A stretch of DNA of 64,000 nucleotides from an uncultured Leptospirales bacterium (lineage in GTDB: Bacteria; Spirochaetota; UBA4802; UBA5550). The notes beneath the pieces were generated by a model that saw nothing but the letters and a program-made list of their open reading frames with translations, was not told the origin of the DNA and made no database searches. The first letter of the stretch is position 1. Every line of letters starts with the position of its first letter. Shown here in pieces: positions 5,590 to 18,190 of the stretch. Both the position numbers and the translations under genes were made by a program. The stretch spans positions 2,233 through 66,232 of the forward strand of contig CAZBFP010000010.1 of NCBI GenBank assembly GCA_964491265.1. Direction: 5' to 3'.

Positions 5590-6576
5590 CTGCTCAAGTC
5601 CAGCTGCGGGTGGATGTGCTGAGTCTGCGTCGCACTTAGTATGTTGAAGTGTCAGGGGCCGGGAGAGGAATCCTGGGCATAGGTAATCAGCCCCGGGCAG
5701 ATAGCGTCGATATCAGGCTCTATTGCTATACAGGAAAGAGATCCGGTTATTGAAGCATAAAAACTATTTTCGGGCGTTAACAGGCCGGTAAACTCTCCGG
5801 CATTAAAACATACTCCCCTTTGTTGTTATTTTCCAGATGCCCTTTACTTTCTCAGCCATAACCCATTTCTCGGCTTTTGATTTATCTTTATATGTAATAA
5901 CAACAGTAACATTTGAAAGCAGCTTATTTTTTTTATTTATCTTTTCTTTGAGAGAGAGTGAAACTATCTGTCTATTCATGGTGAGGTTACTGTCGCAGTG
6001 CTGCCGGTACTCCTCAATAGTTATCTCTCCGCTGTTCACCGGACGATGGTATCAGTCAAACGGCAGCGGAAGGATCCGTTTTGAGTTTAACAGCGACCTG
6101 TCGGCTTTTACCGGCAAATGGGGCAGGGGTGATGCTGAACCGCGCGCAGCATGGGACGGGACAAAGGTCCAACCCTGAATTGAATTTAAGGCTTTTTGAT
6201 ATTAGTGCAACTAAATCTGTTATGCGAATATATTGGAGTTGACTGAGGACAATTCTCTCCTTAATTATTGTGCATCGTTCCTTTCAGCTTCCCGAATTCT
6301 CCGAGTCAATTTATTTTCAATATAATCGCATATCTACAGAATTATCAATAATTTATAGCAACAACAAGCCTTAACTTCTACTAAATAAAGATTGTAATTT
6401 ATAGTATATGTCTGTATGTTGATAATATTATGTGTCTAAAGGTGTAATATTATCACATTATTCAACTGTTTACATTAAAAACAGGGTGTTTCTGATATTT
6501 TATAATCTTAAGCATGTATGTAGAATATATGCCTTCTGTTGAAAACTCTGTTTAATTTATAGTAAATGAGAAAGAA

Positions 6577-8091
6577 ATGAATGAACGAATAGCAAATGCT
6601 CTTGAAGAAGCGAGGAAAGTAAGTGATGAAGGTATTATTCTTTCAGAACGGCTTTCTCCTAAATCAAGGGAAATACTAATAAATGCAGGATTCCTGGAAC
6701 GGATTGTCCGGGGCTGGTATATGCTTGTTTCTCCGGAATCTTCAGGCAGCAGTACTCCCTGGTTCAGTATGTACTGGCAATTCCTGAAACAGTATCTGGT
6801 TCAGCGTTTTGGTCAGTCAGGGTATTGTCTTTCGCCGCAGTCCTCTCTTGATATTTATACAGGGGAAACAACTGTCCCGGAGCAGATAATTATACTTACA
6901 GATAAAAACAGCAATACTACAGTACAGCTCCCCCGGGGGATATCTCTTCTTCTTTATCAGGATAGTAAATCCATACCTGAAAAACCCGGTAGGATTAACG
7001 GATTAAATCTTATGCCTCTCCCGTACGCAATAGCAAAGGCCTCTCCTGCCTATTATCAGAATAAATCAGATAATATTCAAATAGCTTTATCACTTGTTGA
7101 ATCTGTGTCAGATATCACAAGAGTACTTATTGAAACAGGGAGTATTGCAGCTGCTGAAAGGATTGCAGGAGCATATCTTGAAATTGGCAACAGTTCAGCT
7201 TCACAGACTGTTGTTAAGGATATGAAGCTGGCGGGTTATTCTGTTAAACCTGTAAATCCCTTTATATCAATTGTTCCTTTAATTGGTACAGGCAGGTTCC
7301 GTTCACCATATTCCCCGCGAATCATTGCTATGTGGAACAACTTCAGAGGCCCGGTAATTGATATGTTCCCGGAGCCTGTGATAAAAATAGATAACTCTGA
7401 TCCTGATAATGTAATAAAGAGAATCCGGGAGAATATTACTGAAGACGCATATCACTCCCTCTCTATTGAGGGGTACAGGGTTACAGATGATCTTATCAAA
7501 AGGGTCAGATCCGGGGAATGGAATCCTGATAAAGAAATATCAGACAGTAATCTCCGTGATACTCTTGCGGCTAAGGGGTATTCTCTTGCTTATGATGCAG
7601 TTCTTGACAGTGTAACTGAAGCATTAAAGGGGGGTAATCCCGGAAAGATATTTAAAGAGAGTCTGCCGGACTGGTATCGTCAGCTTTTTTACTCCATGGC
7701 CCAGGCAGGTATATTAAGATCAACAGATCTTATCGGATATAGAAGAAATCAGGTTTATATTAAAGATGCTCATCACATCCCGCCCCCTTATGAATCTGTT
7801 ATTGATGCCATGGATACACTCTTTGATCTGCTTCAGAAAGAGGAGAGCGGAGCTGTAAGGGCTTTACTTGGTCATTACTTTTTTGTATATATTCATCCTT
7901 ATATGGATGGTAATGGCAGACTGGCAAGATTTCTTATGAATTTAATGCTCGTTACTGCCGGATACCCCTGGACCATAATCCGGGTAACTGAAAGAGCAGG
8001 TTACATGAAGTCACTTGATCTGGTGGCCAGAGAGAAAGATATAAGGCCATTTACCAGGTTTATTATTCAGGAGATGATGGTAAATCATTGA
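6577..8091 (+). CDS. Fic/Doc-family protein (504 aa) with long N-terminal extension
   Basis: Canonical Fic motif HPYMDGNGRLARF (HPFx[DE]GNGR) near the C-terminus. Confidence 0.85.
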   Translation: MNERIANALEEARKVSDEGIILSERLSPKSREILINAGFLERIVRGWYMLVSPESSGSSTPWFSMYWQFLKQYLVQRFGQSGYCLSPQSSLDIYTGETTVPEQIIILTDKNSNTTVQLPRGISLLLYQDSKSIPEKPGRINGLNLMPLPYAIAKASPAYYQNKSDNIQIALSLVESVSDITRVLIETGSIAAAERIAGAYLEIGNSSASQTVVKDMKLAGYSVKPVNPFISIVPLIGTGRFRSPYSPRIIAMWNNFRGPVIDMFPEPVIKIDNSDPDNVIKRIRENITEDAYHSLSIEGYRVTDDLIKRVRSGEWNPDKEISDSNLRDTLAAKGYSLAYDAVLDSVTEALKGGNPGKIFKESLPDWYRQLFYSMAQAGILRSTDLIGYRRNQVYIKDAHHIPPPYESVIDAMDTLFDLLQKEESGAVRALLGHYFFVYIHPYMDGNGRLARFLMNLMLVTAGYPWTIIRVTERAGYMKSLDLVAREKDIRPFTRFIIQEMMVNH

Positions 8092-8126
8092 GTTTATAAA
8101 GAGGATATTAGTATCCAGCAGATATT

Positions 8127-8375
8127 TCAAATTCTATCGTCCCACTCTGATCTTATACTTTTCTGCCACTGGACAGGATCATTAATTTTATTTTTTAAAA
8201 TACCTGAAGTACTTTTTAATATACTTTCGTTATTAATCTTTTGTTTATCATCATAATTGTCATCTAAAGGTAATACAAGAATTTCAACCCTTTTGTTCAA
8301 ATACTCTTCAGGAATGCATAGATTATAGTCCCGTTTTTTAGGAATAATTATTTCTCTTAACATCCAGTCCTCCAT
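8127..8375 (-). CDS. Small AbrB/MazE/SpoVT-like DNA-binding protein (putative orphan antitoxin), convergent with the Fic gene
   Basis: REIIIPKKRDYNLCIPEEYLNKRVEILVLP resembles a swapped-hairpin AbrB/MazE fold. Acidic C-terminus DPVQWQKSIRSEWDD is typical of MazE/VapB-type antitoxin tails. No cognate toxin on the same strand. Confidence 0.35.
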   Translation of the reverse strand: MEDWMLREIIIPKKRDYNLCIPEEYLNKRVEILVLPLDDNYDDKQKINNESILKSTSGILKNKINDPVQWQKSIRSEWDDRI

Positions 8376-8686
8376 GCATTAATACACCGGCTGAGTTTAT
8401 CCGGTTTTATTCTCTTAATAAATACTATAATAAGAGCAGGATTAAACTCCGTCAACAAAAAAGATAAATGACTGCGGCAGATTCCAATCGGTGTTGAGAG
8501 ATGATGATGAAAAATAGAGTAATTTTAATCCACGGATTTATCAAGTTAATGAACGTATATAACAATCCTGTGAAAGACTTAATTGGTAGTCTCGGGATTC
8601 AATTATCTGCTTGACTATACAAATATAATATATACTCTAAAATATAGTTTTAAGTGAGCCGATAAATAAAGTAGACTAACGAAAAT

Positions 8687-8791
8687 ATGGCACAGCTCTT
8701 TAATACAACCCAACAGAACATAAGTCAGCATATCCAGAATATATATGAGGAACAGGAGCTGACACCGGAGGGAACTTTAAAAGAGAGGTGA
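8687..8791 (+). pseudogene. 34-codon remnant duplicating the RhuM-family N-terminal motif, ending 3 nt before the DUF2283 start
   Basis: MAQLFNTTQQNISQHIQNIYEEQELTPEGTLKER parallels LATLCDVSVPAINQHIKNIYDDHELDAEATIKK of the RhuM gene at 9236. The stop TGA lies inside aGGTGAattATG, which also serves as the RBS for the next gene. Confidence 0.5.
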
Positions 8792-8794
8792 ATT

Positions 8795-9031
8795 ATGGAA
8801 TTAAGTTATGATTCGAAATTTAATATCGCCTATATAAGGTTAAGAACCGGTGTTGAAGAGGTTGAAACTATTAAGATCAGCGAAGAACTGAATATTGATA
8901 TATCACCTGACGGAAAAGTTTACGGTATAGAATTGCTGAACGCCGGTGATCAGCTGGGAATGCTTGAAGGTAAACCTTTTACATTTATAAATGAAGCTAA
9001 AAACACAAAAACAGAAGTGCAGATTGCCTAA
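8795..9031 (+). CDS. DUF2283-family small protein
   Basis: YDSKFNIAYIRLRTGVEE...DGKVYGIELLNAG follows the DUF2283 pattern (YD.e.D.lYI.l.....GIEIL.A). Confidence 0.65.
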   Translation: MELSYDSKFNIAYIRLRTGVEEVETIKISEELNIDISPDGKVYGIELLNAGDQLGMLEGKPFTFINEAKNTKTEVQIA

Positions 9032-9235
9032 CCTTTTTTCAGGTATAAAATCTGATAATGAATGATTCTTGCGTCAGTGACTGCGATTATATAGTAATTT
9101 TTGATCATACCATGCGTCACCTTTTTTTACAAAGGGGTTAATCCAGTCTCAGGATGTGCAGAAAAGTTCCTGCCTCTTTATATGCAGTGGGCCGGGGGGA
9201 TGGGGTCTGAAGAGTTTACAAATAGAGAGTATTAA

Positions 9236-17507: not shown

Positions 17508-17546
17508 GGCTATACCGGATAGTAAAACTGGAAATTATTATAATTG

Positions 17547-17575
17547 TTGACACATTCGATAGAAATACCTATACT
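17547..17575 (+). promoter_or_regulatory. Near-consensus sigma70-type promoter TTGACA-17-TATACT reading towards the integrase remnant and tRNA
   Basis: TTGACA at 17547-17552, 17-nt spacer, TATACT at 17570-17575. Confidence 0.4.
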
Positions 17576-17810
17576 TGTTTGTAGTTATAGGTAATTTTAT
17601 CAGGACTGAGAAGTAAGCATTTTAATTGTGGTTCTTCACTCTCTGCCATTTACAACCTCGAATTATTCTCAGAATATCACTCAATTAGTAAGAGTCCATA
17701 GATAGCAAGAAGTATCTTCGGGGATGAAGTTTAAAAAGAAATCTCTCAAGTTCTTCATCTGTCATATATTCATAATCCTGAGATTTCTCCGGGTGCATGT
17801 ATACAGTCAG

Positions 17811-17972
17811 TCTCTGCTCAATATGGGTGTCAGCCTGGAGGATATACAGAGCCTTCTTGGACATCAGGATATTACCACAACGCAGAGAAGATATGCGCAA
17901 CATGCCAGGCCTGATCTGCTGGATAAGGGGAGCAAAATTGATAATGTGATTAAAATTCAGCGGTTCGGCTGA
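17811..17972 (+). pseudogene. C-terminal remnant (about 53 aa) of a tyrosine recombinase / phage-type integrase
   Basis: LLNMGVSLEDIQSLLGHQDITTTQRRYAQHARPDLL matches the integrase C-terminal box (LLGHssi.tTq.Y.H) with the catalytic Tyr. Upstream part of the ORF is not integrase-like. Lies directly beside the tRNA 3' end. Confidence 0.7.
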
Positions 17973-18000
17973 AAATCCATGGCAATCCTAAGGCAATCGA

Positions 18001-18048
18001 AAACATGCCCGTTATGCGGAAATAGATAACCCCTGATTAAATCAGGGG
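18001..18048 (-). terminator. Possible intrinsic terminator hairpin for the tRNA transcript
   Basis: cccctga-ttaaa-tcagggg hairpin (18030-18048) follows the tRNA 3' end on the minus strand and is followed by a U-rich tract (uuaucuauuucc). Confidence 0.35.
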
Positions 18049-18053
18049 TTATG

Positions 18054-18127
18054 CACGCCCGGCAGGATTCGAACCTGCGACGCACGGATTCGAAGTCCGA
18101 CGCTCTATCCAGCTGAGCTACGGGCGC
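18054..18127 (-). tRNA. tRNA-Arg, anticodon UCG
   Basis: Reverse complement folds as a canonical cloverleaf: acceptor GCGCCCG/CGGGCGT, D-arm GCTC-AGCTGGATA-GAGC, anticodon arm TCGGA-CTTCGAA-TCCGT (anticodon TCG), variable loop GCGTC, T-arm GCAGG-TTCGAAT-CCTGC, discriminator G. CCA is not encoded. Confidence 0.85.
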
Positions 18128-18190
18128 ATTCTATATAGCAGGTATAGTCGTTTATTATACCCGTCCATGTCAATTAAATTAAATAAGAAA

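Follow-up and report, generated by a model that had tools for sequence, protein, structure and literature searches.

Two kinds of described system bear on the locus discussed here. One is the toxin–antitoxin–chaperone module: in the account given of Escherichia coli HigBAC, the chaperone is the phage sensor (bioRxiv 10.1101/2024.02.24.581848), and a Mycobacterium tuberculosis antitoxin without its chaperone-addiction tail is described as becoming chaperone-independent (PMC5105189). The other comprises PDC-S37, a candidate single-gene defence system in PADLOC, and the NCBIfam entries ProA and Hhe. Relatives of both occur together in a 64-kb stretch of DNA (the window) from an uncultured Leptospirales-like spirochaete, just downstream of a tRNA-Arg(TCG) gene and its terminator. 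With a probability of roughly two in three, we read positions 5590–18025 as a decaying patch of defence and toxin–antitoxin genes, lineage-specific and mosaic, whose helicase unit is still mobile (Table 1).

Nearly all the genes listed in the first-pass annotation are present where it placed them, with profile matches, and its description of the cargo as toxin- and defence-like is borne out by PADLOC (PDC-S37, SoFic-like, PDC-S05 and PD-T4-9_C) and NCBIfam (ProA and Hhe). Its reading of the region as an island survives in part: the DNA beside the tRNA is indeed accessory and variable, but it does not form a single 12-kb unit between a core MarC gene and the tRNA.

Table 1. Features of the variable region and its borders, in window coordinates.
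Feature	Coordinates	Strand	Basis or remark
MarC	4978-5589	+	PF01914, E 9.5e-36
Spacer, non-coding or decayed	5590-6576		six-frame translation
78-aa ORF in spacer	5803-6039	-	no family match (Pfam, NCBIfam, PHROG)
C-terminal gene fragment in spacer	6041-6178	+	six-frame translation
Fic-domain protein, 504 aa	6577-8091	+	PF02661, E 1e-13
Small ORF, 82 aa (78 aa by gene callers), convergent with Fic	8127-8375	-	ORF list
RhuM N-terminal remnant	8675-8785	+	tblastn; frame +2 = MAQLFNTTQQNISQHIQNIYEEQELTPEG
DUF2283 small protein	8795-9031	+	PF10049, E 9e-11
C-terminally truncated RhuM, PADLOC PDC-S05 type	9236-9958	+	PF13310, E 2e-72
Gp49/HigB-type (RelE/ParE-fold) toxin	10218-10667	+	PF05973, E 3.7e-9
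HTH (HigA-like) antitoxin, 96 aa	10648/10672-10962	+	HTH_3, E 8e-9
Severed antitoxin C-terminal tail (chaperone-addiction region)	10963-11076	+	38 in-frame open codons past stop
SecB-like chaperone	11083-11487	+	PF02556, E 3.7e-14
Membrane-protein paralogue copy 1 (5' block alpha, 3' block gamma)	11574-12083	+	
5,421-bp repeat unit (helicase and one membrane-gene equivalent)	11575-16995		missing in deletion haplotype
SF1 helicase with Vsr/MTES_1575-type nuclease, 1584 aa	12234-16988	+	DUF4011, AAA_11/12, MTES_1575, DUF3320
Membrane-protein paralogue copy 2 (5' block beta, 3' block delta)	16992-17507	+	
Strong sigma-70-like promoter (TTGACA, 17-nt spacer, TATACT)	17547-17575	+	11/12 match, the region's best
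82-aa ORF holding integrase tail	17724-17972		PF00589 match
Tyrosine-recombinase C-terminal remnant, ~53 aa	17811-17972	+	catalytic-Tyr region ...LLGHQDITTTQRRYAQ
tRNA terminator hairpin	18026-18052		inverted repeat, kept in relatives
tRNA-Arg(TCG)	18053-18127	-	ARAGORN; Rfam RF00005, 64.7 bits

The toxin, HTH antitoxin and SecB-like protein – a series already proposed as HigB–HigA–SecB-like – are all matched in Pfam, the toxin also by the RelE/ParE family TIGR02683 of NCBIfam (E 4e-5) and the chaperone by PD-T4-9_C in PADLOC (E 1.8e-11) and SecB in the PDB (E 7e-5). A premature TAA stop codon ends the antitoxin reading frame, to residues 1–96 of which its closest homologues, 126–148 aa long, align exclusively; past the stop, the severed tail reads NSGKVVYFKDYSNVNVDNEDIKCVIRTNETESRWLGAV and can be aligned to MNGKVVYFKEYSNIKVDNEEIKCVIRTNATGSKWLGAV, the tail of P0181. 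The nonsense codon removes the chaperone-addiction tail from the antitoxin, a sign of decay. By analogy with the published deletion experiments, the loss may have freed the antitoxin of its need for the chaperone and left the module without a chaperone-based trigger.

The helicase–nuclease matches PDC-S37 over its full length (1680 bits; positions 6–1540 of 1550); ProA and Hhe are relatives of it, with scores below the NCBIfam cut-offs (1337 bits against 1500, and 983 bits against 2000, respectively). Its gene has the lowest GC content in the window (32.8%) and the largest tetranucleotide distance, and it is the only segment along the region to deviate in composition; for the patch as a whole, the drop in GC is slight (35.6% versus 37.9% elsewhere).

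Further to the left, the Fic protein combines an intact motif, HPYMDGNGRLAR, visible in the translation, with a long N-terminal region of no assigned family; it matches SoFic in PADLOC (E 8.5e-26) and FICD in the PDB (E 4e-21), and scores only 28 bits against the NCBIfam SoFic equivalog, whose cut-off is 550. The convergent small ORF is called as a gene in contigs L010–L015; its earlier label ‘AbrB-like’ found no support, with no match in Pfam (E ≤ 1), NCBIfam, PHROG, PADLOC or PDB sequences (E ≤ 10). The RhuM remnant, DUF2283 gene and truncated RhuM listed next were all found. Both RhuM copies are fragments, another sign of decay: the first aligns at 40% identity to RhuM residues 44–80 (tblastn, E 0.002), and the second counts as truncated because only positions 1–158 of 252 in PF13310 are matched (it covers 5–231 of 342 in PADLOC PDC-S05), a RhuM C-terminus being absent from every frame downstream of 9958.

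MarC had been taken as the core left flank, with the boundary at 6180. However, five relatives with a 91–95% identical MarC keep it in another conserved neighbourhood – between GAF-HD and a block of 223-aa, 155-aa, TrmA-like and radical-SAM genes – and only 4849–5588 of the window is homologous to them. Relatives L029, L030, L031 and L033 align solely to 4844/4900–5588, at 81–88% nucleotide identity, and flank MarC with other genes that the window lacks. Across the neighbourhoods compared, MarC is thus an isolated block of homology and no syntenic anchor, and non-homology begins already at its stop codon (5589), which leaves a boundary at 6180 without support. The patch could belong to a larger rearranged region that takes in MarC and PAS kinases. 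Within the spacer, strain 2 has a MITE-like insert at 5648–5663, present in L010, L014 and L018.

On the right side, the accessory status proposed for the tRNA-adjacent DNA is upheld by three relatives (L025, L026 and L027) that share the tRNA, the hairpin and the right flank and then carry unrelated genes. The flank retained in them consists of an ABC transporter, a 904-aa protein, MBL (73% amino-acid identity in L025/L026, 51% in L027), the tRNA-Arg adjoining MBL, and the hairpin; beyond it, L025/L026 have a WG-repeat protein gene and L027 has TPR, RNase T and MCP genes, and the entire 64-kb window contains no homologue of any of these. In alignments with the window, homology to these relatives and to L020 stops at ~18022–18026, left of the hairpin, and it is here that the variable region has its right junction. 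The junction therefore lies beyond the conserved terminator and outside the tRNA, not in the tRNA 3' end, where integration had been placed. None of the relatives examined offered an unoccupied site in which the two flanks are joined.

Close to this junction, the sequence resembling an integrase proves to be a genuine remnant, as had been suspected, and not a section of an intact gene. Residues 25–61 of the ORF that holds it match PF00589 positions 134–169 of 172 (29.4 bits; cut-off 27.1), with further matches to the C-termini of XerD, XerC and integron integrases in NCBIfam and to the phrog_1 integrase in PHROG (E 1e-9); only the last ~53 codons survive, and nothing integrase-like lies upstream in any frame. 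Between its stop codon and the 3' end of the tRNA there are, as first measured, 80 bp, and the loss of the rest makes integrase-driven mobility unlikely, in line with the earlier view of the island as probably immobile. The reported lack of a tRNA-derived direct repeat also holds, blastn-short and local alignments against 200 shuffles giving nothing above chance; because no att repeat was found, the case for integrase-mediated entry consists of the remnant and its position. We infer that the patch was assembled in several steps rather than one, of which at least one would have been mediated by an integrase whose gene formerly abutted the junction, while homologous recombination would have been the route of later ones.

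Evidence for recombination comes from the two membrane ORFs, which are paralogues – a relationship missed in the first-pass annotation – with 65% amino-acid identity, and form a direct repeat (11575–12079 / 16996–17494). Copy 1 has four predicted long helices (the AF2 model is helical, at low confidence) and belongs to no known family in Pfam, PADLOC, NCBIfam or PHROG. In a deletion haplotype seen in short-read assemblies of two samples (L013, ERZ27252300; L015, ERZ27252295), position 11779 is joined to 17201: the crossover falls within a 68-nt identical run (11712–11779 / 17133–17200), exactly one unit is gone and an alpha+delta hybrid gene is left. Another contig from the same sample as L015 (L002) breaks inside that run. 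Strain 2 has the order beta+gamma ... alpha'+delta, compared with alpha+gamma ... beta+delta in the window, the 5' blocks being swapped in one JGI metagenome contig only. One crossover placed elsewhere would be expected to give just this swap, and the unit can probably also re-enter as a circle; for both swap and deletion, a residual chance of chimeric assembly across 22–68-nt identical runs has to be allowed for.

The patch is carried by every contig of the species that spans the region (~10 samples, two strains ~98.5% identical) and, the helicase unit excepted, behaves as fixed within the species. The region looks mosaic because divergence and base composition change along its length: identity between strains is 94.8–97.4% over 5500–9000, 98–99.6% over 9000–11500 and 99.6–100% over 12000–16000 (the helicase), and ~95% in the membrane copies. 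Identity fluctuates in the core flanks as well, so that a helicase this nearly identical does no more than hint at recent transfer.

That the whole is a single 12-kb island, brought in by one tyrosine-integrase event at the tRNA-Arg 3' end next to a core MarC and later immobilised with loss of attL, seems unlikely to us. The remnant does end 50 bp short of the position at which the relatives cease to be homologous, the cargo is typical for islands and the content is missing from relatives; but MarC never neighbours the locus in the relatives examined, the junction lies past the hairpin with no att repeat, strain divergence varies from 0.2% to 5%, only the helicase is compositionally odd, and the helicase unit comes and goes on its own. 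A membrane gene and promoter shared with a relative that has different cargo point the same way. We give still less credence to ordinary, vertically inherited chromosomal DNA at a synteny breakpoint, with the integrase an unrelated relic and the polymorphisms artefacts of metagenome assembly across the repeat. Such a view has to accommodate several pseudogenised mobile-element or defence genes, an integrase stump exactly at the junction, the deviant helicase, the occurrence of this membrane gene beside different defence cargo in L024, and a deletion junction that two samples yielded in independent assemblies at k=141, longer than the 68-nt run, at which a third contig breaks; it draws on the presence of the patch in all spanning contigs, an overall GC near that of the flanks, the short-read origin of the polymorphisms and the distance of the relatives (51–73% identity in MBL), at which synteny loss alone is unsurprising.

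It is similarly improbable that the membrane proteins work as effectors or sensors in partnership with the chaperone module and the helicase, one copy for each, the repeat being a by-product of adjacent homologous two-part systems and of no importance as a substrate for recombination. Each copy does lie directly 3' of a module on the same strand (copy 1 starts 86 nt past the SecB-like gene and copy 2 has its start codon 3 nt past the helicase stop), and a membrane gene adjoins AbiE in L024; there, however, it lies ahead of the cargo and not behind it. Plasmid-borne PDC-S37-type helicases stand alone, without such a neighbour, and the membrane-gene family is tiny and lineage-restricted (nine homologues, none in viral contigs), members in L022 and L037 closing operons of unrelated small genes.

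A mosaic patch built in steps remains our preferred reading. The copy 2 region (17096–17617) is 87% identical in nucleotides to L024, where the promoter is kept directly ahead of AbiEi/AbiEii and homology stops at 17617, the AbiEi start codon. Because this relative has AbiEi/AbiEii at the same place, and distant homologues of the membrane gene lie in other mobile or toxin–antitoxin contexts (L022 and L030), defence cargo seems to have docked repeatedly at the distal membrane gene and its outward promoter. The ~12-kb stretch beside tRNA-Arg is, then, an ordinary, half-decayed accessory region with active cassette turnover: recombination within a 68-nt stretch deletes the unit and creates a hybrid gene, and a wild population still gains and loses the helicase.

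The toxin and defence-type genes lying between MarC and tRNA-Arg(TCG) had been read in the first-pass annotation as a single 12-kb island bounded by MarC; a mosaic patch at a variable site is the better description of the region. The genes listed by that annotation are present and in the same order, as judged from the list of open reading frames and from profile searches (see the table). The window contains only one tRNA, tRNA-Arg(TCG) (ARAGORN), and an Rfam scan of 4500-19000 at E<=1 returned nothing besides it. The DNA belongs to a metagenome-assembled organism, and several samples from ENA, JGI and Logan contain contigs identical or nearly identical to it; among named relatives, an uncultured Leptospirales MAG comes nearest in the right flank, at 78% nucleotide identity, and the MarC relatives carry a Spirochaetota annotation. 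A second strain (hereafter strain 2; JGI contig Ga0334882_1000011, loci L010 and L020) is collinear with the window across the whole region at ~98.5% identity.

Genes of the patch and its two neighbours, with window coordinates
Feature	Coordinates	Strand	Basis or remark
MarC	4978-5589		PF01914, E 9.5e-36
Fic, 504 aa	6577-8091		PF02661, E 1e-13; motif HPYMDGNGRLAR
Convergent 82-aa ORF	8127-8375	minus	no family
RhuM N-terminal scrap	8675-8785		~37 aa
DUF2283	8795-9031		PF10049
Truncated RhuM	9236-9958		158/252 PF13310 positions; 231/342 PADLOC PDC-S05
Gp49/HigB-type toxin	10218-10667	plus	PF05973
HTH antitoxin	10672-10962	plus	HTH_3
SecB-like protein	11083-11487	plus	PADLOC PD-T4-9_C, E 1.8e-11
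Membrane ORF copy 1	11574-12083		no family
Helicase-nuclease, 1584 aa	12234-16988		PDC-S37, DUF4011 domain string
Membrane ORF copy 2	16992-17507		no family
82-aa ORF, integrase tail	17724-17972		last ~53 residues match C-terminal end of tyrosine recombinases
tRNA-Arg(TCG)	18053-18127	minus	ARAGORN; Rfam 64.7 bits

At the right boundary, three related loci (L025, L026 and L027) retain the flank of the window – NUDIX, asparaginase, ABC transporter, a 904-aa membrane protein, an MBL-fold protein (MBL; 73% identical in amino-acid sequence to that of the window in L025/L026 and 51% in L027) and tRNA-Arg(TCG). When the junction is aligned across the window, these three loci and L020, the tRNA promoter, the tRNA and its terminator hairpin (18026-18052) are all conserved, and similarity stops just past the hairpin, at about window 18022-18026. 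Beyond this point, L025/L026 carry a WG-repeat protein and L027 carries TPR, RNase T and MCP genes; the 64-kb window contains no homologue of any of them. Because the similarity of the relatives ends there and their next genes are absent from the window, the DNA left of the hairpin is lineage-specific. Adjacency to the 3' side of the tRNA gene, as originally proposed, is thus borne out by both the tRNA call and this alignment. Integration inside the tRNA 3' end is not supported by the same alignment: the junction falls after the terminator hairpin, with variable DNA beginning ~27-30 nt past the tRNA 3' end.

The integrase that had been placed next to the tRNA survives at this junction as a C-terminal remnant of ~53 aa and not as an intact gene, none being found in either of the two strains spanning the stretch. 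The remnant covers PF00589 positions 134-169 of 172 (29.4 bits against a cut-off of 27.1) and also matches the phrog_1 integrase (E 1e-9); its stop codon lies 80 bp from the tRNA 3' end, exactly as annotated, and the stump ends 50 bp from the junction. An ORF on the opposite strand (17685-17903, minus), considered as a second, inverted integrase fragment, was discarded, having no Pfam match at E<=1. The reported absence of a visible att site or direct repeat persisted under sensitive alignment: blastn-short with the tRNA end and junction over the whole window gave nothing above chance, and neither did local alignments of six candidate intervals set against 200 shuffles. Four Logan contigs (L003-L006) end at 18099/18100, and these ends were considered as a variable junction inside the tRNA; they were rejected as uninformative about the island, because k=31 places the graph branch at 18130, a branch that reflects the presence, at another place in those samples, of an identical tRNA whose 5' flank differs. 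The MBL-fold gene itself (18191-18970, minus) has weak precomputed matches to the Anti-Pycsar Apyc1 family; all relatives, however, keep it in synteny with the tRNA and the 904-aa membrane gene, so that a role as a core hydrolase, and not in anti-defence, is the most likely one.

On the left, the role of MarC as the core flank could not be upheld. In the five relatives compared – the complete genome OW818666.1 (L029), HGW-Spirochaetae-5 (L030), and loci L031, L033 and L034 – MarC is 91-95% identical to that of the window but occupies another conserved neighbourhood, with a 199-aa gene and a GAF-HD gene on one side and a block of 223-aa, 155-aa, TrmA-like and radical-SAM genes on the other in all five. 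None of these neighbours was found in the window, and no tRNA lies near MarC in the relatives' loci. Since homology is limited to 4844/4900-5588 and the neighbouring genes differ, MarC is, by this comparison, an isolated homology block in the window. The point at which homology is lost is the MarC stop codon, 5589, and not 6180, where the boundary had been drawn; the intervening 5590-6576 contains only one family-less 78-aa ORF and one gene fragment.

On the right side of the locus, L025-L027 keep the flank and differ in content; both flanks were never found together on one contig. Searches with MBL and MarC homologues, combined with contig look-ups, yielded relatives with either the right or the left flank, and no empty site was found among the contigs of this species. 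A scan of genome contigs with the MBL protein found a single close relative, on a contig that stops within the tRNA, and a scan of metagenome contigs found strain 2 only.

Further observations concern the surroundings of MarC. The kinase array to its left (response-regulator/PAS/HisKA_2; window 1-4594 and upstream) differs between the two strains, with genes of 1404 aa and 874 aa versus 419 aa and 755 aa (L010 1-9617 compared with L011 215-6912), and strain-to-strain identity falls to 95-96.6% at window 1001-2000; the left flank itself is therefore recombinationally active. In relatives, the side of MarC opposite to the island of the window (L030 434-7467, L031 165-3570) is also rich in toxin–antitoxin and defence-type genes – HicB, HEPN/MNT pairs, Fic and a WYL regulator, with IS110 and Tn5-type transposases in L029 – and one gene of that upstream cluster encodes a 172-aa protein distantly related (31% identity) to the membrane protein of the window.

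Several dispersed repeats were also encountered. Strain 2 carries a MITE-like insert of ~356 bp located 60 bp past MarC (window 5648-5663; L010 10688-11042); its ends are inverted repeats, ACTACTACCCAC... / ...GTGGGTAGTAGT, and its target, GTCAGGGG(G)CCGGG, is duplicated. The 64-kb window lacks this insert, and the fact that two other assemblies (L014 and L018) break inside it suggests that it is multicopy. A GC-rich hairpin motif of ~30 nt from its interior (GCCCCCTAAATCCCCCGGAGGGGGAC-like) recurs intergenically around the MarC of relatives (L029 10680-10795; L030 11777-11857 and 12240-12266; L031 7676-7704, 8599-8629 and 10554-10585; L032 916-946; L033 2144-2173; L034 886-915) and looks like a REP-like dispersed repeat family of the clade. 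Another interspersed family, unrelated to the island, is shared by window 62962-63095, 63613-63755, 29599-29685 and 57322-57358 with L030 16070-16212 (HGW-Spirochaetae-5), at 74-89% identity.

The largest gene of the patch encodes a candidate defence protein of the PDC-S37/Hhe/ProA kind. It shares with these proteins the domain string DUF4011, SF1 helicase, MTES_1575 (Vsr-like) nuclease and DUF3320 (Pfam), has the Walker A motif GPPGTGKS and, along its whole length, aligns with the PADLOC candidate PDC-S37 (1680 bits; positions 6-1540 of 1550). It stays below both NCBIfam equivalog cut-offs, scoring 1337 against 1500 for 'anti-phage protein ProA', with the first ~355 profile positions unmatched, and 983 against 2000 for Hhe; our searches found no literature on PDC-S37 or ProA and no experimental defence data for its subgroup. 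On plasmids, helicases of the PDC-S37 type occur alone beside other defence genes (DUF262, SIR2), and no conserved membrane partner was found for these plasmid-borne homologues. Composition, which had been put forward as a test of the island, singles out only this gene: the helicase segment has the lowest GC content in the window (32.8%) and the most deviant tetranucleotide usage, whereas the whole patch, at 35.6%, lies a little below the remaining 37.9%.

The two membrane ORFs that bracket the helicase are paralogues (65% amino-acid identity) and form a direct repeat of ~500 bp with a period of 5,421 bp. Their similarity is mosaic: 5' blocks, termed alpha and beta, that differ at ~20 sites are followed by a 68-nt identical run (11712-11779 / 17133-17200) and then by diverged 3' blocks, termed gamma and delta, and, at the very end, by 37 nearly identical nt. 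Three arrangements of these blocks were seen. The window reads alpha+gamma, helicase, beta+delta; L013 (ERZ27252300) and L015 (ERZ27252295), which are otherwise 99.9% identical to it, have 11779 joined directly to 17201 and hence a single alpha+delta gene, with neither the helicase nor a second copy; and strain 2 reads beta+gamma, helicase, alpha'+delta, its 5' blocks being exchanged relative to the window, an exchange known from one contig. The sample of L015 also yielded contig L002, whose end falls within the identical run, which is what coexistence of both haplotypes in that sample would produce. Between the strains, the helicase is 99.6-100% identical, compared with ~95% for the membrane copies and 95-97% for the Fic region; such near-identity would fit a recent spread of the cassette, although the core flanks are patchy too.

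The simplest account of these haplotypes, as we infer it, is that a resident alpha+delta gene underwent a single crossover with a postulated circle on which the helicase and a beta+gamma gene were joined. A crossover in the 68-nt run would give the arrangement of the window and one in a 22-nt run at the gene start that of strain 2, while the reverse reaction would leave the deletion haplotype; the sequences are compatible with both loss and gain of the cassette. The closest known process is Campbell-type excision and integration, of the RecA type seen in amplification units, which the locus resembles in its 5.4-kb unit with flanking direct repeats of ~500 bp, its precise deletion haplotype with a hybrid repeat, and its swapped repeat arms, as reinsertion at another crossover point would give. 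It differs in that the repeats are diverged paralogous genes with identical runs of only 22-68 nt.

The membrane gene belongs to a very small family of nine clusters, and its protein has no family in Pfam, PADLOC, NCBIfam or PHROGs and no relatives in viral contigs; its AlphaFold model is all-helical and poor (pLDDT 62, pTM 0.36). One relative, L024, matches window 17096-17617 at 87% nucleotide identity – that is, a delta-type gene plus 110 bp downstream – and its homology ends at the start codon of AbiEi/AbiEii. The shared span includes the region's best promoter match (17547-17575; TTGACA, 17-nt spacer, TATACT), which in the window points toward the integrase stump across ~200 bp of non-coding DNA; a search of 17500-18060 for AbiE remnants found none. 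Elsewhere, a distant homologue closes a small-gene operon (L037), and that of L030 sits within the HicB/HEPN-MNT/Fic/WYL cluster upstream of MarC. At L022 866-2847, a gap of 9 nt separates the end of a 58%-identical homologue from the stop codon of a large serine recombinase (500 aa, convergent), with an HTH repressor-like gene and a pRha-family gene next, which identify the locus as a prophage end.

A role of the membrane gene as a 'hotspot' platform is no more than suggested, a single alternative cargo, AbiE in L024, having been seen. As in core defence hotspots with conserved genes at their edges, of the cDHS1 type in P. aeruginosa, defence cargo changes at one set position in the chromosome with no evident mobile element dedicated to it, and a conserved framing gene – in this case the membrane gene and its promoter – is found with varying cargo (AbiE in L024, the helicase in the window). 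The right flank of P. aeruginosa cDHS1 consists of a small hypothetical gene and a DUF4011 gene (PMC10250203), so that a DUF4011 gene is part of the frame there, whereas the DUF4011 helicase is cargo here; unlike in cDHS1, moreover, the framing gene of the window is duplicated on both sides of the cargo. A further-reaching reading, which we consider rather unlikely, is that the helicase and the downstream membrane gene constitute a translocatable circle free of any recombinase, for which the paralogue with its strong outward promoter serves as a landing pad for defence cargos. If so, the circle would enter and leave the chromosome by homologous recombination with the resident paralogue, a lineage-specific pad would dock and express the helicase here and AbiE in L024, and defence genes would be exchanged without integrase or transposase.

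The toxin, HTH antitoxin and SecB-like genes form one co-oriented cluster on the plus strand. Their order is that of the toxin–antitoxin–chaperone (TAC) systems M. tuberculosis HigBA1-SecB(TA), E. coli HigBAC and PD-T4-9 (PMC5105189, PMC6377645, PMC9519451); the chaperone matches the PD-T4-9_C profile, while the toxin and antitoxin, unlike those of PD-T4-9, have no match to the A/B profiles. The antitoxin is 96 aa long, its ORF ending in TAA at 10960-10962 (codon 97), yet the frame remains open for 38 codons past the stop, to just before the SecB-like gene. In an exhaustive HMMER search, the closest homologues were 126-148 aa long (among them P0181, 84% identical and 138 aa, P0182, 136 aa, and P0183, 143 aa), and the query aligned with only their first ~96 residues. 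These intact homologues have an aromatic C-terminal tail of ~40 aa, and the codons past the stop in the window, NSGKVVYFKDYSNVNVDNEDIKCVIRTNETESRWLGAV, align with that of P0181, MNGKVVYFKEYSNIKVDNEEIKCVIRTNATGSKWLGAV. Because a homologous tail is readable in frame after the stop, a Lys-to-stop mutation has removed the C-terminal extension; the 96-aa form is called in all contigs, strain 2 included. The chaperone-addiction (ChAD) extension, the defining element of TAC systems, is thereby missing from the antitoxin as encoded.

In characterised TAC systems, the SecB-like chaperone binds this extension, the chaperone-addiction region, and the M. tuberculosis antitoxin lacking it is active chaperone-free (PMC5105189). 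For E. coli HigBAC, the account in bioRxiv 10.1101/2024.02.24.581848 presents the chaperone as the phage sensor, since a phage protein competes with the tail for binding to it. By analogy, the module of the window would now be an ordinary two-part toxin–antitoxin pair with an idle chaperone, its phage trigger lost; the single nonsense codon parallels in nature the laboratory deletion of the tail, after which the antitoxin no longer needs the chaperone.

The Fic protein carries the motif HxFx(D/E)GNGRxxR in the form HPYMDGNGRLAR, with Y replacing F in the translation, and its closest solved structures are those of FICD (E 4e-21); it falls far short of the SoFic equivalog (NF046030, 28 bits against a cut-off of 550), the PADLOC SoFic match being limited to Fic residues 283-498. 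Neither RhuM/PDC-S05 copy is full length. The convergent ORF at 8127-8375 had been labelled 'AbrB-like', a label for which no support was found: no similarity to the AbrB/MazE/SpoVT family was detected, nor any match in Pfam (E<=1), NCBIfam, PHROGs, PADLOC or PDB sequences (E<=10).

Taken as a whole, the region is best filed with tRNA-adjacent defence and toxin–antitoxin islands that have lost their integrase, the fixed, 'anchored' islands known from many bacteria. Like these, it has a tRNA neighbour, a tyrosine-integrase remnant at the junction, and a cargo of toxin–antitoxin and anti-phage genes, several of them pseudogenised; relatives lack this content. Unlike them, it lacks att direct repeats, its junction lies past the tRNA terminator, its left boundary is undefined (MarC not being syntenic) and its structure is that of a mosaic and not of one element. 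Strict membership is incomplete, because the integrase is only a stump, neither att repeats nor an empty site with both flanks were found, and composition is atypical only for the helicase. What is new, and of moderate interest, is the paralogue-bracketed cassette with its three haplotypes, the naturally tail-less TAC antitoxin and the platform of membrane gene plus promoter with alternative cargo; these details rest in part on metagenome assemblies from short reads.

The patch does not overturn current views; its main value is as a worked example of an ageing tRNA-adjacent defence patch in an uncultured spirochaete lineage, where integrase and att sites have disappeared, two RhuM copies survive as scraps and the TAC tail is lost, and where one defence gene is still found in some members of the wild population and missing from others. 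On the cassette model, if it is right, a duplicated 'handle' gene and host recombination would be enough to shuffle defence genes, which would bear on how defence repertoires turn over in genomes poor in recognisable mobile elements.
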